Assembly: GCA_951804945.1 (NCBI GenBank)
Contig: OX638152.1
Span: 26,970,001-27,034,000, forward strand
DNA from: Podarcis cretensis
Lineage: Eukaryota
Direction: 5' to 3'
DNA: 64,000 nt
In this document: positions 1 through 62,507 of the stretch, in pieces
Layout of the letters: every line of letters starts with the position of its first letter
How positions within the stretch are numbered: the first letter of the stretch is position 1
Translations under genes and position numbers: made by a program
The notes under the pieces: model-generated
Seen by the model: the letters and a program-made list of their open reading frames with translations, nothing else
Database searches by the model: none
What the model was told of the DNA's origin: nothing

Positions 1-1739
1 AATGAACTATGTCTCATAGCCTAAGAGTTAAAATTTAACTCTATACTTAAAAATCTACCAGAATTTAATTCTTTTCTCTGACTTCTAATATTTATCTTCA
101 CATTTTCAATTATTCTCAACCATTGGGGCCATAGCTGTATAAGACATAAGACAGTGATAGCTAAAACCGTTCCAGGTTTTGCAACTCTTGAGTGAATCGC
201 CCCCACTCCAATGCCTCATATTGCCAAATGCTGAGCAGCATAACACCATAGCATGGATTAGTAACTAATCAAGAGTTGATCAGCATGTTTCCCCTTTTTC
301 ACGTTGGTGTTTTACTGCTTCCTCTTTTCAGTTGTGTATATGCCAATTGTACCCCAGAATATAGGTAATACAAGCATGTTAGAGTTCTATCCCCCCCTTG
401 GCATGCATGTAGGACTGTTTCTGGAAATGTGTTCAATCATGTCAACCCCTCACATGCAGTCTGAAGTGGCAAGACCAGGCACATTTTACCCCTATTTCTT
501 GTGAGAACAAGGTCGCAATATTAGCACTACTTATCCAGTTCTGTTGTTGGTTGTTTAGTCATTAACTACGAAGGTTGCTAAATTGGGCCATGTTATCACT
601 TTATCCAGTTTTAAGCTGAGTATTGGTTTTTCTACAGTTTTTGGGCTTCCAGCTTAATCATAGCCAATGAGGTTAATCCAAGGCATAATTATTGCTAGTT
701 GAAAATTTCCCCATCTTTCATTGATACATACTTGTTACTGAATAAATATGGACTACGCTGAAATTGCCAGACGCAAGGCAAATCCAGTTTCTCATTTTAT
801 CTGTTTCTAAAACCATTAGTCACTGTTGGGACAAAACCAAGAAACAAGTGACCATCATGTGAAAAGATCCATGCAACTGGACACTCAGTTCCCAGTCTCA
901 ATCTTGCCAAATATACATTTAATCAGGTTAGGCTATTCCTGGTTGAATAATAAATGCATCCAGATATTGCAAGGGGGAGGAATGAGCTACCACATTCATT
1001 CATTTTCCTGTTTTTCAGATCAAAATTGCCCTCCAGGGTGTGTTTCCCTTTTTGGACGATTATGCAGCTCTGGATGCTGTGAGTGATTTTGAGCTGAAAA
1101 ATAAGTAGAAGGGAAAGAGTTAGGCAGTTCTTCTCCAGCCACTACTTACTAAAAATTGATTGAGCCTTGGAAGAGACATATATAATTGAGTCCTTGCTTT
1201 GAACAGAGTTGGCTTTATGGAAAAAAATCTTCAGGAGATCTGAATTGCTGCTTAAGTGCTTGCATAGCTGGTAATCTACACTCTTATCAAGATCTGCATA
1301 AAACTAGTTGGACACATACATTAGGTATTGGTAAAGGCATGGTTTCTTGTCCAACTTAGTCATGTTCTTTAAGTTTAGTTTGACAAATGTAGATACGATT
1401 TCTTTTGGCATTCACCTGTTTTATTTGCACGAAAGTGTGTGTATATATATTTAAAAATCTTATCTTCTGTTTTTTGAAAATGAACTGTTTCAGTCGACAT
1501 GCTTCATATGCACACGCTTGTCATATAAGCAATGGTGATTTCAGTGTTCTGGAAAGAACCCCATTTAGAACAGGTTGGATGAAATTTCATTATTAGTTTA
1601 ATATTCCTGTGGATGTTGTCTTCTGACCTTACTTAAATATTCAGAAAACAATCTCATATCTTTTTGCTCTGGGTAATGTTCTTACCTCTTGATGGTTCTT
1701 TAATTATCTTTGTTGATACTGAACTTTGTGCAGCACACT

Positions 1740-3957: not shown

Positions 3958-5225
3958 GTAAAATTACTTTTTTCTAGTCACTTTAATTAATTTTGGCTAC
4001 TATTTTTATTTTTTCAAAAATGCTGAAGTTAGATACATATGATGGGCAGAAATTTGGCCGAAATCTTCACAGGTCAAATGTACAAATGACAACAAAAGTG
4101 ACTATCTAATAAACTACACACTTCTCAACTAATGTTCTGTATCATCTAGTTTGGGTGGCAAGAGTAATCTATTTTAAGAAAAGACATTAGAAGTTGAAAC
4201 TTATTTTCTTTGAAATAGCTGAAATAATTTGAACAGTATTTAGACCCTCCAGATGTTGCTAGACTGCAGCTCCTGTTATCGCTAAACATAGGCTGTGCTG
4301 GCTGGGGCTGTGAAAAGTTGAGAGTCCATCAACATCTGGAGAACCGCAGATGTTTCAGAGAGCAATCGTAGTGCAAAACTATGTTATCTAGCCCACAGAA
4401 GAAAACTCACTCAGCATCTAGTGACTTAAATTGCCTTTGGTTATCTTTGACGCTACTGTGAGTAGCCCTGTGATTAGCACCCTAGGGACTTTCAAAGGGC
4501 ATTATTGCTATATGTTGTGTTGAGGCTCTAGATGGGTACTTGTTCCAGTGGAATAGAGAGGCACACTCAACCTCTAAGATAAAAACAGACTGAGACAAGA
4601 GTAGTTCACAGAATTAGCATGAGACTGGGAAGAATGGTCACCCAGTGAATTACCCCCCACTTTCTTACAACTCTTGTTTGCTTCTGCTGTATATGGGAAC
4701 AATAGCATTTTTACTGTTCTTTGTGTAAATCATACTAATAGTTTTCTTGTGTAGTGCCAGGTAGTTAATGTAGCTTGTAGGCTATATTGTTGCACAAGTC
4801 AGAGGCGTTACAGAGGATGTTTTCCCCTTTAGGACTTGACTTACTCAGTGTTTGCTTTGGCTGATCTTAGGGTTAGAATGACCTGATTTCAGTTAAACTG
4901 TGATTTGAAGTTAAGTGTGTCTTTGGTTTCACATCGGAAAAGTCATACAAAGAGAGAGAGAGAATGAACTCAAGCTGATTAACTTAGTGTTGCTGTTGTG
5001 GTGGCGGTGTTTGTCAGTAGTTGAACTTAAGTATCCAAGAAGGAAGAATGGTTTACAGCATTCCATATTGTACATTATATAGAGAAGTCACAATGCATGT
5101 GCAAAGGGTACACGCTAAGTAGGTTGCCGAACTGAAAGGTTTTGTAGAAAAATGTGGCCTCTTCAAGTTTGTATTGTCCTCCCCCCCCCCCCCCGTCTAG
5201 TAACCTGTGTTTCTCAGTGCGTGTG

Positions 5226-5260
5226 CACACACACACACACACACACCTATATACACACAC
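5226..5260. repeat. (CA)n microsatellite
   Basis: Direct inspection. Confidence 0.85.
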
Positions 5261-5314
5261 AGATTGCATCCTTGGTTATTTTATTATATGTACACCACAT
5301 TATCTGCTGCTTTT

Positions 5315-5392
5315 ATGGAAATCATGGAAATTTTACTTCTCTATTCCACCGAAGAGCTCAACGTTGTGCGCTCCCCGCGCCCCTCTAAAAGA
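5315..5392 (+). CDS. PAN3: Candidate alternative first coding exon of PAN3
   Basis: ATG-initiated 26 codons MEIMEILLLYSTEELNVVRSPRPSKR ending at AGA|gtaagt donor, phase 0, compatible with exon 11903; locally CpG-retaining. Confidence 0.5.
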
Positions 5393-6485
5393 GTAAGTTT
5401 GCCTGAGAGAATGTCACAACTGTTTTTAGTTGCTAGGTTTATGAATATTGAAAAGAACCAGATTGATGTACATAAACTAAGCACGTTTGCCTTGTTTGTA
5501 TGGATGTTGTACTTCAGTTCTTGCACATCATGTATGATTTAATGGAATTTGCAGCATTAAATCGCTGCGTTGTGGTATAATACACCACTTGCAGCAACAT
5601 CTGCAGTAATTGTAGATTTGGCCTGTACATTCTGCAAATCTCTGTTTTATACATGTTGGTCCCTTAACATGTTTCCATTGCAGCTTGTAAAACAAAGATG
5701 TAGGGTCTCATTGTTAGAACCCAGAGCCATTGCCAAAGGACCAGGCTTCAGCATCAGCATAGCAGCAGTGCTGTTTCAGTACAGAAGTGGGGATAAAAGT
5801 CCCCCCAAGGCAAGAATGATTTGACTTAGGAGAATCTCAAGCTGATATGGCTCTTACAGCCATTTAGACTACAGTAGGTGGCCTAACTTGCCCGTCCTCT
5901 CCCTCATGTTCACCTCCATTCTCTTTATCTGCAGCACAAATGAGCCAGGAAAGGGTGTGTGTACATTGTGTGAATTGCAAGATCTGCAGCCAGTGGATGA
6001 GAATCCAGCCCACTATCTCATGCTACTGAGCTCTTTTAATTGTCGTACTTCTAACTAATTTCACTATATTGTAGAGGTGGTTGATTTGTGGCCAGTCTGT
6101 AACCCTCCCGAGGATTCTGATACTGGAATTAGCCTTATACTGGGATTCTGAGAATCTTAGTGAGGTGGCAAAGCTGATGTTTATGATGTCTGTTATAATA
6201 CATTTTGGCCTTATTCTGTAAACGAGACATAAAAGTCATGATCTGAGGCATAATGGGGTCACATTGTGACCGTTGTGTTTTGAGTTTTTTAACTATCCAT
6301 GTTGATCTCTTCTCAATATAAACTATTCTAGAAAGGACCATGACTTGGTGTTTCATAAGGTCAGTTAAAAAAGGTCATGCATGTGCCATTAACTAGGTTT
6401 TGATCAAGCAGAGTTTGTAATAAGACACATGGTTTCTTGCTGCTCTGTAAATTTAAATAATTTGTTAGTATAAACCTAACATGTA

Positions 6486-6695
6486 GATAAATAGGGACCG
6501 CTTACCAGCGGGAAGGTAAACGGCGTTTCCGTGTGCGGCTCTGGCTCGCCAGAGCAGCGATGTCACGCTGGCCACGTGACCCGGAAGTGTCTCCGGACAG
6601 CGCTGGCCCCTGGCCTCTTAAGTGAGATGGGCGCACAACCCCAGAGTCTGTCAAGACTGGCCCATACGGGCAGGGGTACCTTTACCTTTACCTTT
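6486..6695 (+). mobile_element. Sauria SINE (Squam1), 5'-truncated
   Basis: Body ggtaaacggcgtttcc...ggccacgtgacccgga, (ACCTTT)n tail, 9-bp TSD TAACATGTA at 6477-6485 and 6696-6704. Confidence 0.85.
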
Positions 6696-6830
6696 TAACA
6701 TGTACTAAAGTTAAAAAGGACCAAGCAGATTCCAGAAGTGTAGTTGTGTTAGTCTGTTATGATGCCACAGTCTCTTGACCTTCAAGGCACCGTAACATTC
6801 TTTGCTGAATCTTGAGAAATTCAGAAAAAC

Positions 6831-7977
6831 GGGGGGCCACTAGGGGGCGCATTGGAAGATGGCCGACAATACCATCTCTCCGACCCACACGGGGTAATTA
6901 AGAGGCTGTTATGGGAGTAGGCAGCCTCCCTTGTTGCCCCAAGGAAATGGGGAACACTGCCCTTGCCTGCTGTGCCCATAAATCACCCCCTAATTCGAAA
7001 GAAGGGGGTGAGGGCCCTAGGCAGAATGCCCCCGTGTGGACCTTGGCTCTCCTGGATGCTGTCTCTGATCACGCACTAGTTGCAGCAATTTGGAATAATT
7101 AATTACAAAAGAAGCAAATGCACATATTTCAAGTGAAGAAGGGGAGTGAAGTCTGCTAATTTAAGTGACCTCTGCGAAAGAAGACGACGGGCTGGAGAAA
7201 CAGGAATATTTTACGATGAAGATACACCAAAGGCGGGGTATGTTGACAACGGGGCTGAATGGGGAGGGGAACCTTTTTTACTTTCCTTCTATGTGATTTA
7301 CAAGAACCCCTCCTCATTAGAACCAACGGTTGAACTGACCCAAGCAGGATGATTAAGGTCTGTGTGGAGATAAACTTTAACCAAAAGTATGCTTTATGGA
7401 GACCGAGAAGCAATAAGAGCTTTTGGGAATGGCGCAGCAATTAATTCGGAGTCGCCATCTTGCCAAAGGATTTATAGCCAGGAGGAAGAACGGATTTGTT
7501 TTCAGACTGCATTCCTAGTGAATCTCCTCAGAGGTTTTGAGAAAGGAGGCAGATTGGTGAAGATTAATGACGCTAAGACTGTTTTGATGTATGGAAGTGA
7601 TGTTATATGGAAAACGTCTGGATATGGCTACTGGATAAAAAAAAAAATATCCATGCAGGATTACAAACTGTTCTAACCAGCTTGCGGAGACTATCAGAGG
7701 TCACAAAGAGAAAGGAAAAATATATGAAAATAACAACAAGAGATGTGGAAAAATAATAAGAAAGGACTGGATAGTACTGTGAACATCATAAGGTTAGATT
7801 TGTGGACATTAAAACAGCAGTAAGAAGCAAGAAGTTGATTGGATCCCTTCGGAACTTGAAATATGGGTACCCCCAACAAAAAATTAAAATTCGGCTGTGT
7901 AATTTGGAATTTATGTAATTTGGTTTGATTTGATGTGATTGGTCGGTTAATAAAAAATTATTCTTAAAAAAAAAAGA
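6831..7977 (+). mobile_element. Non-autonomous L1-mobilised retroelement, ~1.15 kb
   Basis: 17-bp TSD GAGAAATTCAGAAAAAC (6814-6830 and 7978-7994); G-run 5' end; AATAAA plus poly(A) 3' end; no long ORF. Confidence 0.85.
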
Positions 7978-8873
7978 GAGAAATTCAGAAAAACACTTCC
8001 AGGATATTTCAGTTTTTTCCTGTATTTTAGAGTCTCATTTCAATTAAGCATTCAGATGTGTACATGATGACAGATTTGGCCCTTGTTTGCTAAATTGTTT
8101 ACTCTTCCATCTAAAGAAGTATGTTGTGGCCCTTAGTTGGAATTTGTGAATGTACTAGTTTGTTCCTGAACAGTTACAGCTTTGAGTTTTCCCCTTTTGT
8201 TGCTTCCTTAAAAAGGAAAGGCAATTCTAGAAAAGCTATTTGAATTTATTCTTCTAGACCATGAATGAAGAACCCAAGGTCTGTAGACAGTAAAAGACTC
8301 TTACACATCATTTCTGTGTAACCACTTGCAACCAGCTACAACATGTTATCTGTTTATTTGGTATCTCTCCCTCTTCCCTGGTCCAGCTGCAGCCCATCTT
8401 CAGTGAGGATGAGAATGTTGTACCTTAAGAAGATACAGAAGATGCTTGCCTTAAGGCTGTGTGTTGTGGGAGGAAGATGCTAGTAATAGACCTGACAATA
8501 GAAGCAGAGCCTGAGGATCATAGTGCTTGTTTGAGAAAACCTACGTTGTGGGGAAAGGTTTTGTGCCTGAGTTCTGGCAGAAAGGGGAGAAACAATGTCT
8601 GTCTGCTTTGAAGAAAATGTGTACATGTCTGTTTTAAGGAAGAGGGAGAATGTTTATTGCTGTGATAGGTGCATACATTGATTTATGTAGAATATATTCA
8701 GGTATTTGTTGAGATTCCCTCAGGGTCCCTTCCAACTCTGCAATTTTATGATTCAATGTGGAAAAAGGAAATGGGAGTAGTGTAATTTTTAACATGTGTG
8801 AAGACAGTTGGCTAATCAGCATTTTTATACTATGTGAACAACTTAGCTTTATATTTTTCATTAAGCTGCATAT

Positions 8874-12717: not shown

Positions 12718-12903
12718 CAGGGATAGTCAACGTTTTTATACCAACCACCCACTAATGCATCTTCCTTGATGGTAAAATTTCCTTACTGCCCACCAGTGCT
12801 CGATGGAAGGAGGATTCAGTCTGTACCGTAGAACCCCCTACCGCCCACCTAGAATCCTAAAACACCCACTAGTGGGCGGTAGGGACCAGGTTGACAACCC
12901 CTG
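12718..12903. mobile_element. hAT MITE
   Basis: TIRs CAGGGATAGTCAAC...GTTGACAACCCCTG, 8-bp TSD GACTAGAT. Confidence 0.88.
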
Positions 12904-14848
12904 GACTAGATTATATACGTTCAGGGCTGTTGGAAGGAAGGAAGGAACTTCTAAGTAAAAACGATGGAGAAGAGTCTGCGGGAAGCAGGACTCTGCTCTC
13001 TATAAAAGATTGACAAATGAAACATCGCACATTGTTAAAACAATAATGTGAAGAGAATAGTAAGTGAGCAAGAAGAATCTAAGGTTATGGAACCACCTGT
13101 TAACATGGAATAACCTGACTTTAGGGGCAGAGTTGCTTTCAAAGTAGTACTAGGTACATTAATTTTCTAATTGTCAGTTTCATCTGCTATATCTTGTTAG
13201 ATAATATCGTTGGGAAGGAGTCGTTTAACAAGCCCTGTAAGTGGAAGACCTCCACAATCACTTGCGCTTGCACATGACTTTCTTAACTCGTCCCTTGCTC
13301 CCCTTCCCCCTCCCCCAAAAAATATATGGGGGGGGGGTTGGTTGGTTGGTTGGTTGGTTGGTAAAACTCTCAGGGGAGGGAGATTGTTTCCATTGGACAA
13401 GCTGAGATGCTTGCACAGATGTTAATGCTGGCCATATCACAACTTTGAATTCCACCCTTTGTTATCTTGTGAACCACCCTGAGATCTTTTGATGAAGGGT
13501 GGTATGTAAATCTAATAAATAAAATAATTTGTTCCATATGGTCATGGCTGTAGGTCACATACATGACTGCAGAAACTTTAGCTGCCTCAGAGATTTCAGT
13601 ACCCAGGTTTGGGGAAGTGGGTGGAGGTGGCTAAACAGGTTTATATTTGCAGTGTGCAGTATGCAAACAAGTTCTCTAGATAGCATAGCTCTTAACTCCA
13701 TGTACCATGGAAATAGCATCTCCGTTTTTCATGCTGCAAAGCAGCTGCCTTATTCTCTAGTGCAGACAAAAACTAGTTTCACTTTCAAGTTTGGGGCAAC
13801 CAGCGACGTTTATTTTAAAAAGAGGTCTATTGTCAGAACCATCTTAGGGAAGCAACCTTAGCCTGTCTTGCATGATGGAAAATAATTGAGGGTTGAGGAG
13901 GAAAATTAAGCCTTATAGTTTTATCATAAGTAGTTACCTTAAAAATATGAATCTGCCTTAAATGAAGTCCATTTATCTGCATAGTCCAGTGCTGTCAACT
14001 CTGGCAGTTTCTCTCCAGGATGATGCCTAGGATTTTTCCAAAGTCTTTCTGCCCAGAAATGTCATGGATCTTAAACCTGGATCTTGTTCATACCAAGGTT
14101 TTTCTTTAGCAGTGAGCTATGGCTTTTCCTGTGTGCCCCCCTCCTTTCTGGGGCAGCACCTCATGCCTCATACTGCTTTAAGAAAGGGGCTGAGAAGCTT
14201 CTATGAATAGCACACATAGTGCTTTGAATCCTACAGTTTGTTTTTATTTAAGTTTGGAAAAAACACTTAACATCCATAATCATAGTCACAGGAAACATTG
14301 TAGTTTTATAGTATGTATGTATGTATGTATGTATAAATAAATAATAGATTGCACATCATATTTTGTTTCAGTGCTGAGTAAGTAGTACCTAGTTAATAAA
14401 TTTGTCTTGACAATGAGTATAGTATGGTTAGTTTGCGTAATCATTGCAACCTGGTGGTGGTTTTTTTTAAAAAAAAATACATTCTGTGTAGGTGTCTATA
14501 TAAATCGTTACAAATTATATGGCACAGACCTCAGTATTTTCCTTTCAGATGATTCTAGTTTGGTTTAAATAAGGCGTGGGGAATGTTTTTAGCTCCATGG
14601 GCCAGATTCTTATAAGGATCTGCCTTGCAGGGCAAATTTGACAGGTGTCAGTCAACTGATACCAGGGAATTTGGTGCTTTGAAGTCCCAGGATTTCAAAG
14701 CAGGAAACAAGGCTGTGAAAGTGAAGGCTTCTTCCTTCCTTTTGCAGGACAAACCTTTCCTTTAGCAGCGCCTTGCTGTCTGCTACATGCACAGTCAAAA
14801 TGAGCAGGTTAGGGGGCATGATAGTTGCCTGCAGGTAAACCTCATGTA

Positions 14849-15076
14849 CAGTGGTGCCCCGCAAGACGAATGCCTCGCAAGACGAAAAACTCGCTAGACG
14901 AAAGAGTTTTCCGTTTTTGAGGTGCTTCGCAAGACGAATTTCCCTATGGGCTTGCTTTGCAAGACGAAACCGCTAATAGCCGCTAAGCCGCTAATAGCCA
15001 TGCTTCGCAAGACAAAAAAACCGCAAGACGAAGAGACTCGCGGAACGGATTAATTTCGTCTTACGAGGCACCACTG
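14849..15076 (+). mobile_element. Tigger/mariner-type MITE, family A (short copy)
   Basis: TA|CAGTGGTGCC...GGCACCACTG|TA; internal GCAAGACGAA repeats. Confidence 0.9.
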
Positions 15077-15909
15077 TACCCAGACCAAGCAGGATCCCCC
15101 CTCAATACATCAGCCAATGCACCATTGGGCGGAGGGGATCATGCTTAGCAAAGGGGGGCGTTGCATAAGAGAGCTCCCTGCAGGTTGCTCTCTTGTATGC
15201 TTGGACCAAACAGAATTGCCCTCCTTTCACATCAGGGTGGTTTAAGCAAGCGGGCAGGTGGTTGCAGTGGAGAAGTAGAGCAGACTCTTCTCCCTTACCC
15301 TTCTGCCACTGGCTCTTCTTAAAGACAAAGTGCAAGTTACTCCAAATAGTCCTTTTACAAAGGGCTTTTATCACTGCTCATCAGTGATGAGCAGGGATTA
15401 AATCCTGCTGCTTTGGCTGCATGATCCTGTTCCTTGCTTGGGAATAGGCCATACAGCTAATGTAGGAGGAATAAACCATCTCCTCCCATCCATCAGCAGT
15501 CCCGTGGGTGGACGTGGTTTGGAGTAATTGGCCTGACAAGCCAATCTTGGCCCACCAATCGGAAGTTCCCCATCCTTGGTTTAAAGAGTACTGTGGCAGT
15601 ACCTGGCGCTTTTTGTCTGCCATAGCACAGTGGCACAATTAGATGGAGTTGTAATTGAATAGCTTGAAAATGTTGCAAATATTTGCTGTTGCTTTCCTTA
15701 CCCTTTGGGCAAAAGTTGGTATCTTTGTGGCTAACCATTTCACTTGAATCTTACATGTAAACTGCGAAGTTTTAAAACACCTTGTCCAGCTGTCCCAAGT
15801 CTGTTTTTATCTGCAAGGAAATATACCCCCCACCCCAAGCCTTGGAGTCTGTTATGGCTGCAAATGCCTTTTCACTGCAAGTGTTCTTTTTTCCTTTTAT
15901 TTTCATAAG

Positions 15910-16157
15910 GAATGTCATTGTCAGCAGGATCTTCTCCCCTTCATTCCCCTAAAATTACTCCTCACACGTCTCCTGCTCCTAGACGAAGAAGTCATACACC
16001 AAACCCAGCAAATTACATGGTGCCTACTAGTGCCTCTACGCCAGTTACTAATGCTGTCTCCCAGCCGCCAGCTGCTGGCCAGGTGATTCAGAAGGAAACT
16101 GTGGGTGGCACAACCTATTTCTATACTGACACAACTCCAGCACCTGTAACTGGAATG
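15910..16157 (+). CDS. PAN3: PAN3 exon 7
   Basis: ataag|GAATG...ATG|gtgaga; 248 nt; MSLSAGSSPLHSPKITPHTSPAPRRRSHTPNP...GGTTYFYTDTTPAPVTGM. Confidence 0.97.
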
Positions 16158-20130: not shown

Positions 20131-21043
20131 GTAAGTAACTAAAGATCCTGAATTTAAATTGCATTTTTAAGCCGGTCTTTTGCTTGCTGTGTTTGCTACT
20201 GCAGTTAGATATATGAATAATCAATTTGCATATTAAAGCAAAGCCATTCTGAATGCAGGATTGACTATAATCCAGTGGAGTCTCTGTATTAGGTTCTTTC
20301 AAGCTCCTTTTCAATGCATTTATTCAGTAGTGCACAATCCAAACTTTTCTTATTTATTTCTTTAAATAATTAGTATAATGCAACCCTGAGGAAATATTTG
20401 TTACGTGGATGACACAGTCTGTGAAAATAAGTACTGTACAAAATCTCTCGTGCTTCAGTGGATCTCTTCTGTCTTTTATTTGTTTTTCTTCTTCAGAAAC
20501 AAAATGCATCATATTTGAAATTCAAAGTGATATAGAACAAAAAGTTTTGCAAAATCACATAATAATAACATATGAAACTAGGTCTGCTGCAGACATGGCT
20601 GGGATCACTCCTTTGGGGTGGCCTGTCTGAATAAAAACGTCTTCAGTTCCTAATGAGTGCCAGTTACTGCACTTGATTTAGATGTGAACTGCTATACTGA
20701 AACTCATCAGGGTGCTCCCAAGACAAATTTAACAATGTCTCTGTGCATAAGGCTCTGTCAGGTCTCAGATTTTCCCATTCAGTGCATCAAAGTGTACAAT
20801 GTCTTCAACAAGGCAGGAATAAAAGCTTGCCTTAAACTGATAATGTAAAATTAAAACTCCCATAAGTATCTTCTAGTAGAGTTTACCCTTAGGGTTTACA
20901 CACTCAGGTTTTAGATTTTTGGTTCTTGTCCTACTCTTCTCCCATTATGACCAACTGGCACCAAGCACACTATTTCCTACCCCATCTATAAAATATGTGA
21001 ATCAGGATCTTAGTGCAAATACTGAACACCCTTTTCTTCAGTA

Positions 21044-21397
21044 CAGTGGTGCCTCGCAAGACGAAATTAATCTGTTCCGTGAGGCTCTTCGTATAGCGGT
21101 TTTTTCGTCTTGCGAAGCAAGCCCATTGACAGCTTAGCTGATTAGCGCTATTAGCAGTTTAGCGGCTTTTAGCGATCAGCTGTTAAGCGGCTTATCAGCG
21201 GATCAGCTGATAAGCGGCTTAGCGGTTTAGGAAAAGGGGGGGGAGGGGAAAAACCCCGCAGGAACTCGCAAGACATTTTCGTCTTGCGAAGCAAGCCCAT
21301 AGGGAAATTCATTTTGCGAAGCGCCTCCAAAACGGAAAACCCTTTCGTCTAGCGGGTTTTCCGTCTTGCGAGGCGTTCATCTTGCGGGGCACCACTG
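21044..21397 (-). mobile_element. Tigger/mariner-type MITE, family A (inverted copy)
   Basis: Same TIRs and TA TSD; reverse complement of the 42336 copy. Confidence 0.9.
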
Positions 21398-21636
21398 TAT
21401 TGCAGATTTCTGAATTTTCCAAAGCAAACCTGCGTGTTGTGGTAAAAGTTGAAAAGTTGTATAGGATTTGCATCAAAGTTTGTTGTCAGAGCTTTGTTAC
21501 AGTCTTCTAAACCAATGTGAGTGTGTGTGTGTTTGTGTGTGTGTGTATTGTCTTGTCATTGAATTGCTTTGTCTATAATAACTCTTTTCTTCATAATTTT
21601 AAGTAGTGTCTAATGTATTTCCGTAAACTGGTTTAG

Positions 21637-22941: not shown

Positions 22942-23192
22942 AAGAAGAAGAGAAGAGTTTGGATTTGATACCCTGCCTTTCACTCCCTTTAAGGAGTCTC
23001 AAAGCGGCTAACATTCTCCTTTCCCTTCCTCCCCCACAACAAACACTCTGTGAGGTGAGTGAGGCTGAGAGACTTCAAAGAAGTGTGACTGGCCCAAGGT
23101 CACCCAGCAGCTGCATGTGGAGGAGCGGAGACGCGAACCCGGTTCCCCAGATTGCTAGACTACCGCTCTTAACCACTACACACCACACTGGC
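22942..23192 (-). mobile_element. tRNA-derived SINE (Squam3-type)
   Basis: Reverse complement starts GCCAGTGTGGTG..TAGTGGTTAAGAGC (A box) and GGTTCGCGTC (B box); (CTT)n tail. Confidence 0.85.
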
Positions 23193-41295: not shown

Positions 41296-42335
41296 CTGAA
41301 AAAGAACACACCTTCGGTAATGCAACTTTGTTCCTTGTGTGTTCAAGTTTACCACAGTTACACATTGACTCTGAATAACCCATCATCTACATGGCCCTAG
41401 ATTGACTTTTTGGTAAAAGTGCAACCATGTAGGGTGTTCAACAACTGTGCAAAACGTGTACCTGTGTATGCAAAGAGTTGAGTTTGTACACCAATATTCA
41501 CATGTAACATTCAATGACCATAAAGTCTGTGTACACAACAGCTTAGCTGTACAAATCAACAAGGGTACACCCACAAATACTCGTTTATGTTTAGAGACAG
41601 CTTGTACTTGTATTTGGGGTAATATGTGAATAAGCCTTATGTTAGCTGCAAGAAAAGTGGTGTATGAGCAGTGGTAAAAAAAGTATTCCTGTTCCCAAAA
41701 AAGTGATAAATTATCAAATTGTTAACTATTTCTTAGTTGACACTCTTTGTCCACTGAGACTTAAGTAGGACTGCACTTTTTGGTGTTATGGTTTAGCATA
41801 TCTTTACATACCAGAGATATTCTTGGAGTTCTCTGAGCGTAGACTCAGTTACAAGCTTCAGGGACACAAAAAGGAGACCTGGCTCACAGAAGCAAGTTGT
41901 ACATACTCCCAATTCTTCTCTGGCTCATATTAAAATTCCTAGTTTACCTAGCCAACCACCTCACTACTTCTCCATCAGCCCTCTTCCTTCCATAAATTAG
42001 TCTTGGAGCCCCTTCAAGTCAGTGGTGTTTTTTGCAGGTGTATTCTGCAATGTGTTGGGCTCGTAGCTTCTTGCTGAAATGCTGTAACTTTTTATCCCAC
42101 AAACGTTTATTTTTTAAAAATAAATAAATTTTATTTTCAGTTTTTCTTAAAAATATTTTACATCAATAGAAATCCAGTATTACAATACACAAAAATATTC
42201 TGTTTCCCCTCACCCCTTTTGTGGTTTCTTATTTTAATTCATAACACTGCATTTTCTTCGTCATTCTAATTATTAATTACTCCTTCAAAATTTCTTTGAA
42301 CTGTTTGGTTTAAATTAATCCGCCTAATGAACTTA

Positions 42336-42688
42336 CAGTGGTGCCCCGCAAGACGAACGCCTCGCAAGACGGAAAACCCGCTAGACGAAAGGGTTTTCCA
42401 TTTTGGAGGCGCTTCGCAAAACGAATTTCCCTATGGGCTTGCTTCGCAAGACGAAAATGTCTTGCGAGTTCCTGTGGGTTTCCCCCCTTCCCCCCCTTTT
42501 CCTAAGCCGCTAAGCCACTTATCAGCTGATCCGCTGATAAGCCGCTTAACAGCGGATCGCTAAAAGCCGCTAAACCGCTAATAGCGCTAATCCGCTAAGC
42601 TGTCAATGGGCTTGCTTCGCAAGACGAAAAAACCGCTATACGAAGAGCCTCATGGAACGGATTAATTTCGTCTTGCGAGGCACCACTG
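42336..42688 (+). mobile_element. Tigger/mariner-type MITE, family A
   Basis: TA|CAGTGGTGCC...GGCACCACTG|TA. Confidence 0.9.
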
Positions 42689-44011
42689 TATGTGTGTACA
42701 ATGACATTTCAAACAATCTACAAATTTTCCCCAGTCACTGATAAAGTTTTTCATCCCACAAATGTTCTGGGGGTGTGTGTACATGTCCCCTTTTGGTGTT
42801 GCAGAATATACCTGCAGAAAAGCACCAGTTTGGAAGGGTGGTCCTGCCATTGACACAATAATGGCACATTAGTGGTGGATTTACACTACACTGCCCCCTC
42901 CGCTGCATTGGTTATTATGTGCTGCTTTTGCCACGTTGCTGCATTATTGCCATCTGGAGGGGGCACTCTTCCACAACTAAATTGGGCAACAGGGTGGGGA
43001 AACAACCCAGAACTTTTGTGGGACAAAAAGTTACAGGATTTCAGAAGGAAGCTATGGGAAATGGCACTGGTTGGGAATGAAGCAGTATGTCCAAACCTAA
43101 ACCTTTTGCAGGCACAGAGAGCACTGATCGTGTATATCGCTTTTGTAAAGAACTATGCAGAAATTCTGGTTTTAGTATATTGGCTGTTTGGCCGTGATAA
43201 TAAACATTCATTTATTTAACACCACCATGAGCACAAATCACTCTGTATGCACAATAAAAATGACATCAGGAGGTGCCCACTCCATGTTGTGATGGGAGCA
43301 GATGGGGCAGTACCCCCAGCTACAATTAAAAAATTAAAGAACCATTTTTTGTTCACTGCTAATACAGCAGCAGAGAAAGCCACCATAGCTCTTGGGAGTT
43401 ATAGTTTTTCCAAGCTCCATACTCCTACCTCCTTTAATCTGCTGCTCCTATTGAAAGAGGTTTGGGGAGGTAGGTGAGTGACTGATTTCAAAAAGTCAGA
43501 ATAGCTAAGTGATATATTCCCAACTTTTTCCCAAGTCAGTTTGTGGTTTGGGGAGCTTGCCCATCAACTGCCTTGAGGTTCAGGTGGAGGGACTGGATAG
43601 AAATGAATGAGTAATTAGACTAGTTCCACTGTCACACTCTACTGTGACGAACGGAGAAAAGGCCAGCCATGGTGGGGAGTGTGCACTGCATCCCTCCTAG
43701 AGGTCCCTGCAACATACAAACACTCTCTCCACACAGATATATCACACCCAGCACATTATTTACCATTTGGCTAATTAACAGTCTGGGGGAAAAAAAATCA
43801 ATGCTACTTTTAAACATGTTACTCTCGCCGTGCACATCAGCAGGACAATACCAACTTGCACAGCAAAATGAGTCACTCTTCCCACAACATCAGCCCATCC
43901 TGGAGGAAGATGACCACAAAGGATCTGTTGTATTCCTCTTTAGCTCAGCAACACAAGGCTGGATCTAAAATGGCACACACCACACATTTTAGTAGGTTGA
44001 TCATGACTTAC

Positions 44012-45043: not shown

Positions 45044-47954
45044 CTGCCAAAAGCAAAAGACAGGGTATCATGAGCACTCCTTCTATGATTCACACTTGAA
45101 CAGCAGACTTCAGATCTGGGAGCCACCCTTAACCCAAACTTGCAACATGGGATCCATTTTTAAATTATTTTCTATACACAGCCACCTCCCTCCCTCTCTT
45201 TTCTCTCCTACTTTCTAACTTAAACTCTCTCTGATTTTATGCTCTTCAAACAAAATACAGACATGGTGAAAGTGCTACCGATACCCCCAGAGTTCAGAGC
45301 ATTTGTGTGCCTTGAAGAACCATCAGTGCCGTGCAGTAGAGAACACATCAAACCTCTTGTAGTATTTCAGGCATTTCTACAGAGTTAAGCTACAGAGTTA
45401 ACTGTTGCAGTTTTAATTATTTTTCATAGGATTTAGGTTCTGAGGAAAGTGAGGAAGAAGTCAGTACAGTTATGATGAAACTCCTGCTTTTTCATTCTTC
45501 CTCTTTCCACATGTGAACGATGAACAAATACTTAAACTCCTCACAAGGCTTCATAGCTTGGTCGCTCGCTTGCCAGACTAATCTCAGGGCTAGAAAAATC
45601 TCTGTTGCATTGAAATCTTAAAGCTTCTCTACTGCAGTGTAAGCCCATTATCTCTTGCCCTCCAAGCGCCAGTTACGCCATTGCTCACATCAGCCTTTCA
45701 TGTGTTTGAAAGGTTATCAAGCTGCTTCATCGACCTTCTCTGGCATAAGCCAAACACCAGGAGCCCTCAGCAGCCTGCATCACAGATCTCTGCCCCCAAT
45801 CTCTGATAACCTCTGCTGCTCTTCACTGATTCCTCTCTCAGTTGTTATCCACACACCCACCCCAAAAAGCACACGGGCCTCACAATAGCCAAACCAGAAA
45901 GTTTCATTCTGTAGTTTTGCCATCATAGGACTATTAGTAAATGTGATGGCTGAACAAAGTGATGCTGAAGCATCAAAGGGGGAACGGGATGTCGCACATC
46001 TCATGTGGTATCTCTTGAGAATCCTTGCTTTTATCTACCAACCTCCCCATCCCACTTAAGATAGGATTAATAGTGTGTGGGCAATGTCTGGTAGATTCTT
46101 AGATGCAGGGCTTAGGGATTTGTTTGTGTAACAAAGGAGGTTCAGTTGGCTTCAGACAGGAATTTTAACCCTCACACAACTTTTGGTTTCAGAGTTGAGG
46201 GCAATTGTTCTTGCAGTTATGACATTTATGAAGTTACATCTGACCCGGGGTGTGTGTACAAAAATGCAGAAAAAGAAATAAGAGGGAGGGAGGGCCCATA
46301 CTTTAGGAGGCAGTAGCCATGCATGTGCTACACATTTGAGATGCTGGGGAAGTTCTTCAAGCTCAGACTAGAAACCTAACTTGGGAGGCCTGTAAAAATC
46401 CCTTGCAAAAGAAGAGGTGAGTTTTACAAGCCCCAAATGTCTTCTCCTCCATAGATGAAAACGCCAGCAGGAGAAGACATCCCAGCTCCACCCAACTTCA
46501 CACCGGTATGTTTCTGTCATTTGCCTCACCTGTCCCTGCTGCCTTCCCCATACTCAAAGGTCGCTCCCATTTTTCCTTCCACACACACATATTCCCCTGT
46601 CCCACCAGTAGGGAGCAGCAACAGTAGGAAAAAATGGTAGGTCTCCCCCCCCCCCATCCTCTAACAGCATGGCAGGCAAGGAGAATTATTAGAGTTATGC
46701 TTCTTCCAAGGGCTCCTGCAAATGCACCTGGATTTAAATTAATCTGGAGCCTGTATTCACTGGGATTCCTAATACCACTGATCCTAATCATACTGCATTG
46801 CCATCCATTTGGATTTTTCTGGGAATATCCTGCATACAGGAGTCTGGTTTCATCAGCGGTTGGGAACCTCTAGTCCATGGGCTTCAAGATCAGCCCAGGA
46901 AGTCGTTTTTGGGGCACCACACCCATCTCTCTTAACCTGACGTCTTATATGACATCAAGCATGGGAAAGTTCAAGAGGCAGCTGCTGCAGGGCAAGGCAA
47001 AATGTAGCACTTCTCGAATTTGTCACTTTTTTCTTTTGCTCTGAACAGAGAAATGAAAAAAGCACAGAATTTTGCCTGCAAAAGAAGAAGGGGCAGTGCA
47101 TTCTGAGTGCACTCCCAATTCTTCCTTTAAAGCCACTGCTTGAATTCAAGCTGATGATGCAAAGGAACAAACCATCCTTTGCAGTCATGGCTTGCATTCA
47201 GTCCAGCTGCAAAGGAAGAATTGAGAATGCAACTGCAGATTGAAGCCACAATCACCTGATGTTATGTGATATCAGGTGAATGAGAGGATGTGTGGTCTGT
47301 GTGGGGCTGGCCACTTCCAGACCTGGCCCTCCGGCTTAATCCAATTTCCCAGCTCCAACTTACAGGATAACCACCCCAAAATCGTTTTGATGTCCTTTTC
47401 TGATATCATGTTCTCCGTGAATGTGTCTCCATAGGAATTACACAAAATCATTCTGATTGTGAGACGCACATAGGAACTAGTATACATCCTAAATTGTGTG
47501 TGTGTGGCCCTCCACCCTGTCTGGAGCTTAGGGGAGCTGAAGTCCAAAACATACGGAAGACCACAGCTTAGGCACCCCTGCCTTAAATCCCAAAACCCAG
47601 AGAGCAGATCTTAAGGATAAGTTCCTTTAAGGAAAAAGCTAGCAGAAGGCCTAACTAAAGCCAAAGCCAAATTATGTTTTTAAGGAAAGCAGAAAAAAAA
47701 TGATTCAGAAAGGGGTGACTTAAGAGTAGAGAATGTGGTGCTTAACCTTTTCACCACCTATAATTTCTCTGTTCCAGTTTCTCCCCCTTAAAACTAGGTT
47801 AACTATCTGCCTACAGCAGGGGTGGCTAAGCGGTGGCTCTCTAGATATTGTTGGACTACAACTCCCATCATCCCTGTCCATTGGTCTTGCTGGCTGGGGG
47901 TGATGGAGGTGGAATTCAACATCTAGATGGCCACAGATTAGCTATCCCAAATGA

Positions 47955-48091
47955 NNNNNNNNNNNNNNNNNNNNNNNNNNNNNNNNNNNNNNNNNNNNNN
48001 NNNNNNNNNNNNNNNNNNNNNNNNNNNNNNNNNNNNNNNNNNNNNNNNNNNNNNNNNNNNNNNNNNNNNNNNNNNNNNNNNNNNNNNNNNN
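47955..48091. other. Assembly gap (137 N)
   Basis: Run of N; abuts the tail side of a Squam3-type SINE. Confidence 1.
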
Positions 48092-50271: not shown

Positions 50272-51181
50272 CAGTGGTACCTCTGGTTGTGAGCCCTCGG
50301 GTTATGTTTTTTTCGGGTTATGAACGTTTTTAACCTGGAAGTGAGTGTTCCGAGCTCTCGGAGGCCTCCGCGAATGCCCGGAGCCAGGCCCCAACATCCG
50401 CAGGGCCTACGGAGGCTCTGCGATCGGCCTCCAGCCGCAAGAGCTTTCCGAGGCCTTCACAACTGCCCAGAACCAGGCCCCGACATCCTCAGGATGCCCA
50501 GCAGGTCGCACCCCAGCCCCAAAGCTAGGTAAGAAACACTTACCTAACGAAGACCAAGAGCAGTGAAACCGTTAAGAAAACAAAGATGAGCCTGGGCCGA
50601 AAAGCCCTTTACCAACCCTTGCCCCACCCCCAGCTGTAGCAAGATGGGTGGCACCTCGCCAGGTAAGCCCACCTACCCTGTGAGAGGGGGGGAGTGGAAG
50701 ATTTTGGGATTCTGCAAAGGATTTTGGGATTTGTTTATGTGAGTCTGCCCTGTGCCTTTGTCTCTGCTTTGCTCTTCGTTTGGGGGACTTCTGGGGACTC
50801 TGCCTTTTGTCATTGTTTTGGGGATCGTGTGGAGCCCAGTTCAGCTACTGGTTGATTGTGTGACTGCAGAAATGGATAAAATTCCCCCCATCCAAACAAT
50901 GACTATCATCAGTGCATGCAAGAAAAAATAAATGTTAATTTTTTTCATCTACAATACTGTCTTATTTATTTTATAGTACAGTACATTGATTATTGCCTTC
51001 ATTTTATGGATCAATGGTCTTGTTAGACAGTAAAATTCATGTTAAATTGCTGTTTTAGGGGGTGTTTTTCATCGTCTGGAACGGATCAATCCACTTTTCC
51101 ATTACTTTCAGTGGGAAAGTGCGCTTCAGGTTAAGAACAGACTTCTGGAACCAATTAAGTACTTAACCTGAGGCACCACTG
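50272..51181. mobile_element. Tigger/mariner-type non-autonomous transposon, 910 bp, with GC-rich internal segment
   Basis: TA|CAGTGGTACCTC...GAGGCACCACTG|TA. Confidence 0.8.
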
Positions 51182-51574: not shown

Positions 51575-51785
51575 TTACTTTTCAAGCAAAATGAAATTAG
51601 CTGTAGATAGCAATGTAAGTGTTTTACAGAGCTAGAATTATTGCTTTAGGCTGCACATGGAAGTTGCCTTCTGCTCACAGAAGGGCCAGAGTGGTGTTGT
51701 GCTAGAAAAATGAGATTAAATGCAGAGATGCAGTTTGTCTTGCACATACAGTACTCCACTCTGACTTTAGAGATCTGCCAGTTTC

Positions 51786-52519
51786 TTTCACCTCTGGTGG
51801 ACCTGCCCTAGAGTGAAGGCTTTCTGGGAAATGATATATAATGAGCTGAAAAAGGTATTCAAGTATACCTTTCCTAAGAAACCAGAGGCCTTCCTTCTGG
51901 GTATCGTCGGCCAGAGGGTGTTAAAGAAGGATCGAACATTTTTTATGTATGCAACAACAGCAGCAAGGATACTCGTCGCCAAGCACTGGAAAACCCAAGA
52001 TTTACCCACACTGGAAGAATGGCAGTTGCAACTGATAGATTATATGGAACTGGCTGAGATGACTGGCAGAATCCGAGACCTGGGAGAGGAGACGGTAGAA
52101 GAAGACTGGAAGGAATTCAAGACCTACCTACAGAAACATTGTAAATTGTATGAATGCTAAGAAGGATGCCAGATTGGAATGTAATTTGGCACCATTAAGC
52201 TAGATGAATTGAAGTATGAAGATAAGCTAAATTGAAGAAAAGATAAACTTTGGATAATTATCAGGCTAAATTTAAACTTTATAGATTTGAACAAAAGTTA
52301 TCTAAAAATAGAGATATAATATTGGAAAAATAGATAATAAGAATGGAAATAAGGGGATAAATTGCTGGTTAGATATTTATAAATCAGGAACGCAGGAGCG
52401 GGAGACGTGAGGGAGTCCAAAGAAGTTAAGAAAATATGTAATGATATGTGTTATTTTGTTTCTTTCTTTATTTGTATGGTAATCAAAAAATCTTTAATAA
52501 ATATCTTTAAAAAAAAAAA
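51786..52519 (+). mobile_element. Young 5'-truncated L1 (ORF2 C-terminus, 3'UTR, poly(A))
   Basis: Open frame FHLWWTCPRVKAFWEMI...AARILVAKHWK...W..F..Y to TAA 52160; AATAAA plus A-tail; 18-bp TSD TAGAGATCTGCCAGTTTC (51768-51785 and 52520-52537). Confidence 0.92.
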
Positions 52520-52994
52520 TAGAGATCTGCCAGTTTCAAGCCAGCCATCACAAATATAAGACTAGAAACTTGGTTTTCAAAAGCTGAGAGTCTCAGGAAG
52601 CTTGGTTGGGTGCCTAGTACCAATTATGTTCTTTTTCCCTGCACTTCTACAAAAGCTAAATACAGACAGCCCTGGATGCAGATAAGTCGGTATGCTGTGA
52701 TTTCCCCAGTATTAAAGAAATGTGCTTTGCATGTGCCTAAAGTTCCTTAATGCTGCTCATATATTCTTCCAGAACATTAAGATCTTTTTTTCAAAGGGGA
52801 AGAAAAGTTTTTTTTTAAAAAAAATAATTGGGTTTTATAAACAAGAATAATGTTATGCAAATAAATATACCAAGTTTTCTCATGTAATTTGTATACCACA
52901 AAAATAGCATAATAAATGTTGAAAAATATCTACAACATATGTTTCATTATTAGTGGCCAATGTATAAATTCTTGGTTTATGACTTGGTTTAAAC

Positions 52995-53130
52995 CAGGCA
53001 TGGCCAAACATGGCCCTCCACCTGTTTTGGGACTAGAGTTCCCATCATCTCTGACCACTGGTCCTGTTAGTTAGGGATGATGGGAGTTGTAGTCCCAAAA
53101 CAGCTGAAGGGCCAAGTTTGGCCATGCCTG
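52995..53130. mobile_element. Palindromic hAT-like MITE
   Basis: CAGGCATGGCCAAAC...GTTTGGCCATGCCTG. Confidence 0.82.
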
Positions 53131-53139
53131 GTTAAACAA

Positions 53140-53572
53140 TTTGGAAAAAGAAGAGGGGGGAAGAAAGGAGTGGGGTGAGGTGGTTATGCCTCTATTATTC
53201 TACTTAGTGTGTGTGAGGGGTTGTGCCAGCGTTACTTGTATGGGTTCTCTTACTATTCACTTGTTGTATTTCCTTGATGGTGAGAGAGGTTGGAGGGTGG
53301 CTTAGGGTGTGGTTGGTTGTCTTTGGTTGGCTGCAGTGAGAATTGTTTTTGTGTGTGAGCAGGGTATGAGTGTGTATTTTTGAATCAGGTTAGCCAAATT
53401 GATTTGTATGCTGTTGGGGGATTCTTGTTGTTGTCTTGTTGGGCTGTGTATGTGATAAAGGGGAACCAAACCGGGGTGAAGGCATCTTCTTCTATTTGTC
53501 CCCGTGTCAGTTTCAGTTTATTGGTTAGTTTTTCTAATAAGGATGTTTCCCATGCTATTTGGGAAGAAAAGT
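53140..53572 (-). mobile_element. L1-type LINE 3' fragment (second family)
   Basis: Minus frame QIAWETSLLEKLTNKLKLTRGQIEEDAFTPVWFPFITY...* resembles the L1 ORF2 C-terminus; C/A-rich 3'UTR. Confidence 0.7.
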
Positions 53573-53974
53573 TATTTCACACATTCCAGGGCTGAGTCCT
53601 AACAGTGCCAACAAATTCCTGAGCTAAACCAAAAGTTTCTGGGGGTAAATTATGATGAGCCATAGCTCAAATTAAGCCCCACTGCACCCCCAGTGAAGAA
53701 ACACAAACTTCTATTTCTTTTGCAAATAAAGTTTAAGCCTTTTTACTGGCGGGCCTAGCAAGGTTAGCCAAGAAACAAATATCAACATGTAAACTATTCA
53801 AAAAACAGAGCTGGCGGACATTTCCGAGCATTGTTGTGGAGGATGCAAACTGTCACAGTGCATACAACTCATCTGGACCGCTCATCTTCACATAAAAAAT
53901 GTACAATCACTTTCAGGGGCCTTTTAGAGTGCAGAGAATGTAAACATTTAGAAAACTCTTCCATGAGCTGTTCA

Positions 53975-59680: not shown

Positions 59681-62507
59681 CTGCATCAAAAACAAATCAC
59701 AGTTGCTGCTTAGAGAGACATCATCAGATAAACTCACAGTATTGAACGTTTCATTATGTTTAAAGTTCTGACTGTGTGAGAATACATGGAGAGGTCCTGA
59801 ATTTATATGCAACAAATTATACCACTTTCACAGACCTATGCTCAAAGCAATTCACAATATAAATGAAACCCTAAGTAGTCACACAAATGATGGAAGTGTG
59901 AGCGCAGCTGCAAAAGGGGGAGATTATCACACCTGGCTGCTTCTGGTCCAGAGCCTTTCAATAATAATTATTGTGTTTTGGGCTGTGTACACATCATATA
60001 TTTAAAGTATATTTCCCCCTCCCAAAGAATCCTGGGAACTGTTGTCATTTAGGATTCTGGGAAGTGTAGCCCACAATTCCCAGGATTCTTTGGCACGGAG
60101 AACGTGCTTTAAATGTATGGCATGTCTGCATTAGGAATAACAGAAACTGAGCCACATCAGCTAAGATATATTGTTAGAACTGGTCTGTAAAATCCAGGGG
60201 AGTAACTTGCAACAGTTGGGATACAAGACAACAAATATTTATCACATTTAAGCTTATGCTTCAAACTTAGCCCACTGTCAAGCCCTAAAAATGACACTGT
60301 AGCGGCTGTATTAACAATCAAAATGTTGCAAAACTGCTGCAAAGTACTGGCATGAAGCACTCTGCTGCTGCTGAAAAATGCCACAAGGCACAACAGTAAC
60401 CACCAGTGCCAGCTGTTGTTTCATTCATTCATTTCTTCTGCAAGGATTGGAATGGCCTTCAGTACTTGTCTGGCACTCTGTTATTTCATCCATCTCTTGG
60501 TCAGAGATGACCGAAGATATTTTGCTGGATAGGGCAAGAAATTAAATGGTTGTAAAAGTACAGTGCTAAGCCAAATAATGGAATGTTTGCTGCCTTTTAA
60601 GCATGCCTCCCATAATCTACTATTCCCACTGATATTTGCAAGTATTGGGATGGGGGACAAATTCCAGCTGGGATCTCGGCAAGAACAAAGGATTAAAGCT
60701 ACATCCCTTCATTCCATGATTCTAATTCCCCCCAGCTACTTATTTTTAAAAAGACATCAGCTACATAAGGGCAAACTAGATGGCAACATCATACTTAGTT
60801 TGGGCATTAGACCATTTCTCCCTGCCTAAGGGTTGCACCAATCAGATCCCAGCTGGTCCTTTCACTTTTCCGTTCTGCTATCTCCCTGCTTCATTAATTT
60901 CCCTTCTTTCCTCTGATTCGACAGGGTTGCTCGGGTTTTACCACATATCAGGTGAAGACGTGTGGTAAAATGTGTGTTCATCTGATCATCTGTCCACCTG
61001 GATTCACAGAATCACGAGGACATCAGTAAAGTGAAGGAGACAGAGGGCACTGAAACCTGTTGCTTGTGTTGCAGGAGCCTGATTCTGTCATGGAGCCCTT
61101 AGGACCCCCGTGCAGACCAGGCATCCATCTGTTGTAAACCTAACTCCTGGAAGCTCATTGTTTTCTGAGAATTTGGCATTTATTTTGATCAATAATAGTC
61201 CATTTACTTAGGACATTGGAATAAGCAACTTGTAAACTCTCTCTGTACTCAGTAAAACACCACAGGGGTATTGTTGTATTCGGACACTGGCATGTTTTCC
61301 AGATATCTTTTCCATCTGAACAATCTCTGTTTCATGGAAAACTAATAAAACTCTCCCCACCCCCCGCTTTAAAAATCCTCCGATATTCTGGTTTCAGTTA
61401 CATTATGTTTTAGTGCCAAACATTGGCTCCTAAGAACTTGTAGAGAGTATTTGGATATTTGAATTCTTGGACCAAATTCTCCTCACTTTACAAGCCACAG
61501 AAAATCCCTCCAGCAGCTTCAGAAGATAATGGCATACAGAGCAGCGTTATTAGGAATGTGAGGTGCAATTTACGTCCCACTGAAATCTATTTCCCCCATT
61601 GCCCCCTTTTCACCTGGCACAGCAGTATTGAAAGCGGGATCATCTGTATATCTGCCCCAATACCAGCATGAATACAGATTGTCACAAATACACAATAAAG
61701 AGGACATCTGGAAGGGCAATTGAAAAGCAGAGCAAGGGAAAATCAAAGCATAACATCTCGCCTTAGCCTATAATAGCTAATCCTAATATTTAACTCAATC
61801 TCTTAGGGGTTATGTTACTACTACACAGGCTGGTTTTTCCCCACCCCACACCTCCAGGTTCACTTAGGGTAACTGAGATCATGAAAAAGCCACTCTGAGT
61901 CAGGGGAAATGTTGTGTGAGCAGACTTTTGGACTCCAACAACTACACTCTTGGAGGGAGCCACACAAACAAACATAGAATTGCTCTTTTTTTCTTAAAAC
62001 AAGCTGTCATTCTTTCAATGCAGACCGTGCTTGTTATGCCACAATTAAAGATCCAATTAAAATAAAAATCCTAGGTGGGGTAAAGGACCGCCCTAGGTTG
62101 GGTAGTACACTAAGTGATTCCACCCTGGCTACAGGGTTGTGCAAATTCAGGGAGTCTGTTTTCTGCTTGACACAAAGCTGTTTTCTGATTGAATAACTGA
62201 ATGGTTAGAGCACACTGACATTTTAAAAAAGGCCTAAGTGGGGGTGTAATCTGCCATACTGTTTGCAGCTTAATGGGTATCATATGGTATGCTTACAGCC
62301 ACCATAAACAATGGTAGCATAGAACCCTTTGCATATGTTTCTTCATACAGAGACTGTAACAATAGTCATTTGTTTTCTAAACATTTGCAATTTGGTATCT
62401 GTTGCAGAGAGCCAAATTCTGATACAGTATATACTCACACTAGGCTCTTCAGGCTCACATCCTGAAGCTCCTCACACCTTGTGTAGAGACCAGCATATGT
62501 AAGTCTA

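Follow-up and report, generated by a model that had tools for sequence, protein, structure and literature searches.

A non-coding insert of 1,147 nt (6831..7977, plus strand), with no ORF above 95 aa, was identified in the window, the whole 64,000-nt stretch of DNA that was analysed. We see about an even chance that it is an ORF-less derivative of an L1 element, consisting of an L1 5'UTR and an L1-type tail, driven by Pol II and mobilised in trans. A CTCF motif stands at its extreme 5' end, and the insert could scatter CTCF sites, judging from its letters alone.

Insertion signature

The insert was bounded by a 17-bp TSD, GAGAAATTCAGAAAAAC, whose copies at 6814..6830 and 7978..7994 (plus strand) were identical at 17 of 17 positions; the chance expectation for such a repeat beside any A-run in the window was approximately 0.0005. 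The top-strand nick context at the 5' copy was TT/GAGAA. GC content was 42% overall and fell from 56% to 34% along the length of the insert. Its first six bases were G (6831..6836), as in full-length L1s, and a G-run with a YY1 site is the ordinary L1 start described in section 9 of PMC5381506. The end of the insert (7949..7975, plus strand) consisted of the sole AATAAA within it (7949-7954), an 11-nt spacer, and an A10 tail (7966-7975), and an extra GA preceded the second TSD copy.

A young 5'-truncated L1 of 734 nt (51786-52519; 51768-52537 on the plus strand with its flanks) was resident in the same window and served as a control. It had an 18-bp TSD, the nick context TTT/AGAGA, and an intact ORF2 C-terminus, the latter 91% identical to a Podarcis muralis UniRef protein. 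The L1 nick consensus is TT/AAAA. TSD length, TT/purine nick, AATAAA, and short pre-tail spacer all agreed between the insert and this L1. Since the TSD, nick context, AATAAA, and spacer match those of the window's true L1, the insertion was almost certainly made by L1 proteins. The original prediction had listed a perfect 17-bp TSD, an AATAAA with a poly(A) tail, and a G-run start and had deduced L1-type mobilisation; each of these features was found, and a long TSD, an A-tail after AATAAA, and a TT/purine nick together bear out the mode of mobilisation. Apart from the TSD, no LTR or terminal-repeat structure was present in the insert; it contained no tandem repeats, and no further copy of it occurred within the 64-kb window.

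Coding capacity and small-RNA origin

The longest ATG ORF of the insert encoded 95 aa, and none of its six frames matched a Pfam family at E<=1. Scored with a profile built from 22 ORF2 proteins of lizards, the insert reached a best E value of 0.69 and the control L1 1e-71, in keeping with the earlier statement that no RT/EN-sized ORF and no coding capacity are present. Candidate ORF2 remnants picked by eye (GVAIL at 7447-7461, QEEER at ~7480, and DWIPSE at ~7838) were rejected, the best tblastn E value being only 0.49. Of 24 tests by frameshift-aware alignment, 22 did not leave the range of the shuffled controls; the other two, which scored 41 and 48 against null maxima of 35 and 38 (10 shuffles each), received no support from the profile. 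A candidate ORF2 C-terminus with a profile score of 28.8 was likewise discarded, the score being equalled by nine of 214 bins of the window.

No ORF1 was detected in the insert by searches of Pfam, PDB, and Atlas. Atlas returned no usable match for either of the two insert ORFs tried, and PDB returned none for frame +3 and two chance matches (E 0.3-0.4) for frame +2. Not one of 65 candidates was a longer protein related to the 100-aa open frame. Cellular protein homology was absent for frame +1 in large protein sets and for frames +2 and +3 in Pfam and PDB.

Five Rfam matches at E 1.1-9.4, far under gathering, led to the rejection of a ribozyme or other RNA family. ARAGORN found no tRNA in the insert, and Rfam no small-RNA head. 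Pol III B boxes with one mismatch were absent from 6831-7050, and two A-box-like words with two mismatches were found. The earlier judgement that the insert is not a tRNA SINE and is without clear A and B boxes is upheld by these searches.

Relatives of the insert

A search of frame +1 against 1.84 billion protein representatives returned three proteins (P0038, P0039, and P0040), and the same three were recovered among 103 candidates in a second protein set. All are spurious, frame-switching ORFs from other copies or variants of the middle region of the insert (7146..7673, plus strand). They derive from contigs of 1,037, 903, and 985 nt, respectively, and from clusters of three, three, and two sequences. 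The relatives were 87-96% identical to the window, with 5/108, 2/67, and 1/61 differing residues (~1-5%), and two of the three shift frame by one base. These one-base frameshifts show the region to be non-coding. At two of the five P0038 differences a CpG is restored where the window has CA or TG, as for a methylated copy.

Close non-coding relatives thus exist (three clusters, eight sequences), all of which lie outside the 5' end and CTCF motif of the insert (6831-6870). Their contigs, slightly shorter than the element, would fit either a repeat collapsed in assembly or a transcript of 1.1 kb, and the relatives could be alleles or orthologues of the insert locus.

CTCF and YY1 motifs at the 5' end

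The CTCF core motif CCACTAGGGGGCGC was located at 6837..6850 (plus strand), within the GGCCACTAGGGGGCGC that occupies 6835-6850. It was the only exact match in 64 kb to a 14-nt CTCF consensus (0.008 exact matches expected), and what had been predicted as a near-perfect core match near the 5' end is therefore exact against that consensus. With one mismatch or fewer, five matches were found in the window, one of them exact, against 0.5 expected; the four one-mismatch sites lie at 12866-12879, 16065-16078, 46605-46618, and 50498-50511. The motif of the insert equals the first 14 of the 16 letters of the site termed canonical in PMC5694663. Methylation sensitivity of CTCF is confined to positions 2-3 (PMC5694663, section 8), and because the insert motif is without CpG there, CTCF binding to it is plausible even on methylated DNA.

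A YY1 start box, AAGATGGCCGA, follows at 6856..6866 (plus strand), its 11 nt identical to the human L1 head; the first YY1 site of the original prediction, AAGATGGCCG, is present at 6856-6865. The second, inverted site, CGCCATCTTG, is also present (7453..7462, minus strand), inside a small CpG cluster. It is weak evidence by itself because YY1-like words with at most one mismatch occurred at chance level in the whole window (7 observed, 8.8 expected); the first box carries weight through its position.

Anole clade-1 L1s start with GACTTCCGG and have ATGGC at about nt 19-21 (PMC5381506). The insert starts with G6-CCACTA-GGGGGCGC and has ATGGC at nt 29, and its CTCF motif stands where the anole elements have GACTTCCGG. 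The word GGGGGCGC forms the 3' half of the CTCF motif and is also the opening word of four frog/zebrafish L1 consensus sequences. An accidental motif is unlikely because six bases that complete it would stand before GGGGGCGC by chance with a probability of ~0.001. Two origins remain for the motif, namely a family promoter that uses CTCF or captured upstream bases. CTCF use has been reported for the human L1 5'UTR (PMC8535693), and full-length L1 copies frequently gain upstream 5' bases through upstream initiation (PMC2912911, section 7). The sequence CCACTAGGGGG had no match in the L1 supplement of PMC5381506, which gives the first ~400 nt per sequence. Only seven CpG (o/e 0.33) were counted in the first 270 nt of the insert, and because of this low number the promoter of the present copy looks decayed.

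Comparison of the head with squamate L1 5'UTRs

The head of the insert was compared by eye with nine anole clade-1 L1 heads, from a distant iguanian, in the supplement of PMC5381506 (first ~400 nt of each). The first ~190 nt of the insert contained the boxes and hairpins of these 5'UTRs in the same order. The region that resembles a squamate clade-1 L1 5'UTR in this comparison, 6859..7011 (plus strand), comprises the boxes ATGGC, CTCCCT (6926), GGGGA (6949), and GCCCATAAA (6974) together with three hairpins. By hand count, ATGGC was followed ~65 nt on by CTCCC in seven of the nine anole heads, and by both CTCCC and, 12-30 nt further, GGGGA in four of the nine. This three-box pattern occurred once in the window, in the insert, where 0.01 was expected, an optimistic figure given that the pattern was picked after both sequences had been viewed. 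Counted from the ATG, the offsets in the insert were +67 (CTCCCT), +90 (GGGGA), +115 (GCCCATAAA), and +124 (hairpin arm); the corresponding offsets in L1_AC12 were approximately +71, +97, +130, and +143. Within the 65,014 characters of the supplement, GCCCATAAA was found twice, both times in lizard L1 heads, and its occurrence in L1_AC12 is in register, directly before a like hairpin. L1_AC14 has ATGGCGACAAGAC and the insert ATGGCCGACAATAC.

Segment 6900-7030 folded into three hairpins with a z score of -3.2, which none of 200 shuffles equalled. The predicted CACCCCC/GGGGGTG hairpin at ~6984-7010 is real; it spans 6983..7011 (plus strand) with a 9-bp stem and an inner GAAA tetraloop, and taken alone it was equalled by seven of 200 shuffles. 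In sliding folds of the sense strand, z < -2 was reached outside 6901-7020 only at 7541-7660. Hairpins at the second and third positions, differing in sequence from those of the insert, were also seen by eye in the heads of anole L1_AC1, 3b, 11, 12, and 14. The hairpins possibly represent a conserved RNA structure of squamate L1 5'UTRs, and such structures seem to have been kept from anole to lacertid. From the boxes and hairpins we infer that the head of the insert descends from a clade-1 L1 5'UTR.

Comparison of the 3' region with L1 3'UTRs

The 3' region of the insert (7543..7965, plus strand) is first A-rich and then T-rich and is a likely L1 3'UTR of marginal similarity to that of the resident L1. 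The last 425 nt of the insert aligned end to end with the resident 3'UTR, from just past its ORF2 stop. When 800 other segments of the window were scored under four schemes, 0, 2, 9, and 0 of them came up to the insert tail, and a second true L1 3'UTR scored below the insert tail in all four. In sets of 500 composition-kept shuffles, 9-31 reached the score of the insert tail by global and 18-82 by local alignment, a marginal result, and the control pair of true L1 3'UTRs was even weaker against shuffles. No similarity was detected between the insert tail and the older L1 3'UTR of the window, whose score was reached by 169-500 of 500 shuffles. The 3' part had a GC content of 34%, and anole clade-1 3'UTRs have 33% (PMC5381506). 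These alignments are suggestive of an L1 3'UTR, and composition may explain them. An ORF2 stub marking a 5'UTR/3'UTR junction was not found in the insert.

An older L1 3' remnant with weak ORF2-end similarity (E 0.17) lies at ~42105-42870 on the minus strand. A 357-bp element, also found at 21042-21399 and 14847-15079, is inserted in it.

Origin of the insert

The proposed mechanism starts from an insertion that bears the signature of the window's true L1 and from a sequence in which ORF1, ORF2, and a small-RNA head were not detected. The by-eye comparison suggests a clade-1 L1 5'UTR head whose first ~20 nt (GACTTCCGG in anole) would have given way to 28 nt that spell a CTCF site upstream of the YY1 box. 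More weakly, the tail may be an L1 3'UTR that was joined to this head through deletion of both ORFs. Pol II would initiate from the internal promoter at a start set by YY1, and the transcript would be copied in trans, via its poly(A) tail, by the proteins of full-length lizard L1s. A small young family is suggested because near-identical non-coding relatives are found on element-sized contigs. Each full-length copy is predicted to deliver a strong CTCF site, which probably serves the element's own promoter, with anchoring of host loops as a by-product. The description of the insert as a non-autonomous Pol II L1 parasite is supported in three respects: it was mobilised in the manner of an L1, it has no coding capacity, and its 5' end is of the Pol II type; in place of an independent parasite, an L1 derivative is the better reading, given the likeness of the head to squamate clade-1 L1 5'UTRs.

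A dead-end product of an autonomous L1, either poly(A)-cut inside a long 5'UTR or spliced from the 5'UTR to the 3' end like human SpIREs, is unlikely, though of appreciable weight. The relatives would then be repeated accidents without a lineage, and the CTCF motif would belong to the promoter of the autonomous L1. Anole clade-1 5'UTRs measure 792-1,465 nt and turn A-rich in their later parts (PMC5381506), and the pre-tail length of 1,135 nt lies within this span; SpIREs arise repeatedly and for the most part lead no further (PMC5860796); the marginal standing of the 3'UTR similarity against shuffles fits as well. However, the T-rich block, AATAAA, and 11-nt spacer are arranged as at the window's two L1 3' ends and in lizard L1 3'UTRs, and an RNA without ORF2 needs mobilisation in trans, which favours a dedicated source. 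It is barely probable that the insert is a decayed HAL1-like element with ORF1 only, to which the A-rich stretch at 7631-7830 and the short amphipathic pattern of a 49-aa ORF might point; Pfam gave no L1 ORF1 match for the insert, neither of two ORFs had an Atlas match, an ORF1 of ~1,066 nt is too long to fit behind the UTR, and relatives 1-5% apart that are already frame-shifted, next to a perfect TSD, leave no time for such decay.

The GC gradient, AATAAA, and tail would suit any Pol II RNA, and element-sized contigs would also suit an expressed transcript of ~1.1 kb, as expected if the insert had been copied from a cellular RNA, non-coding or poorly conserved, whose start lies within an old L1 5'UTR or a CTCF/YY1 promoter. 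One copy or a few would then exist, the short-contig relatives being the source transcript or orthologues, and upstream initiation, which often adds 5' bases to full-length L1 copies (PMC2912911, section 7), could on one occasion have taken up a CTCF site from the genome. This origin is quite unlikely: beyond the three spurious ORFs no protein relative of frame +1 appeared among the 1.84 billion representatives, frames +2 and +3 are without a Pfam or credible PDB match, and the ordered L1 boxes right at the 5' end are left unexplained. The same boxes make very unlikely the strict form of the original prediction, in which the insert, in the manner of Sadhu in Arabidopsis, would be an independent Pol II parasite without ORFs and without kinship to L1, its L1-like boxes due to convergence or chance; four boxes and two hairpins occur in the order and spacing of anole L1_AC12 and AC14, although no formal L1 UTR alignment passes a strict test and the box pattern is post hoc.

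Relation to known elements

The insert, read as an L1 derivative, resembles anole clade-1 L1s (L1_AC12, AC14, AC1, and AC3b; PMC5381506) in the order and spacing of the ATGGC, CTCCCT, G-rich, and CCCATAAA boxes, the two following hairpins, the AATAAA and poly(A) end, and UTR base composition; it differs in having neither ORF1 nor ORF2 and in measuring 1.15 kb instead of 6.4 kb. With the bipartite ORF-less LINEs, or SIDEs (PMC5786205, PMC6740152), it shares absence of an ORF and of a Pol III head, and it would share LINE ends, Pol II transcription, and trans mobilisation and may work like them, a likeness drawn from the by-eye 5' and marginal 3' similarity. Its parent would be L1, a clade absent from the 2018 list: section 23 of PMC5786205 (Kojima 2018) gives ORF-less LINE derivatives for RTE, Ingi (RIME), Vingi, and R2 (SIDE) only, with HAL1 as the ORF1-bearing L1 case. 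PMC6740152 (2019) adds CR1 (Persaeus) and describes such elements as rare and known from insects and trypanosomes. HAL1 is likewise an L1-derived, non-autonomous element with L1 ends retained, but it encodes ORF1p, none of which was detected in the insert. Human SpIREs (PMC5860796) are also shortened L1s with a full-length start, TSD, and tail; they lose parts of the 5'UTR or the ORF1 start and keep most of the L1, whereas the insert would miss ~80%. Arabidopsis Sadhu (PMC2848041) is a non-autonomous retroposon with LINE-type target sites as well, but from a plant, and the insert appears to be derived from L1 UTRs. No description of the element was found in the mostly open literature that was searched, and a repeat database such as Repbase or Dfam may already list the element.

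A self-propagating ORF-less L1 derivative in lacertids, with a CTCF start swapped in and each full-length copy planting a bound, oriented CTCF site, would give polymorphic loop anchors in wall lizards; this extended proposal we regard as doubtful. Mammalian transposons, B2 SINE among them, are well known to carry CTCF sites. The insert shares with these, and with the human L1 5'UTR (PMC8535693), a CTCF motif in a mobile element, and differs in that its predicted site is at the extreme 5' end of a squamate Pol II element. A self-propagating lacertid derivative, if true, would be the first ORF-less one for the L1 clade. An L1-derived ORF-less element in a vertebrate would mean that a promoter plus tail and nothing more can overcome the preference of L1 for its own RNA, and the element would isolate the cis parts of a squamate L1, including the 5'UTR hairpins. 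If the CTCF motif were family-wide and bound, young presence/absence insertions would test the effect of a new site on reptile loops, for which the B2 SINEs of rodents are a precedent as transposon CTCF sites that reshape loops. The insert would be ordinary if it were a one-off truncated L1.

Genomic setting

The insert is sense-oriented in a long intron of PAN3, the exons of which are on the plus strand, ~3.9 kb upstream of the exon at about 11,900. The proposed position between PAN3 alternative exons reduces to this placement in a long intron, no alternative exon having been borne out. Of 68 ORFs scanned, five, all minus-strand and located at 44.9-59.7 kb, correspond to tyrosine-kinase exons, presumably those of FLT1 from synteny. 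The window thus does contain tyrosine-kinase exons, as the suggested proximity to FLT1 would have it, but they are at least 37 kb from the insert, and a relevance of the insert to FLT1 or to PAN3 alternative exons is without support.

Several other features of the window were recorded. A 112-codon open frame at 5204-5539 (plus strand) in the PAN3 intron, without a PDB or Pfam match, is possibly the proposed alternative exon. A U4 snRNA match at 637-780 (plus strand), with 47 bits against an Rfam threshold of 46, probably stems from a retrocopy, now decayed, inside the PAN3 intron. Two copies of a SINE-like repeat, presumably Sauria SINE, lie at 6484-6693 and 62507-62710; they are 77% alike, and one ends ~120 nt upstream of the insert. 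On the minus strand, 751 nt between 13-nt direct repeats beside an A-run (52797-53573) may represent another old retro-insertion or chance. An assembly gap of 137 nt (47955-48091) adjoins a repeat that also occurs at 22975-23192.
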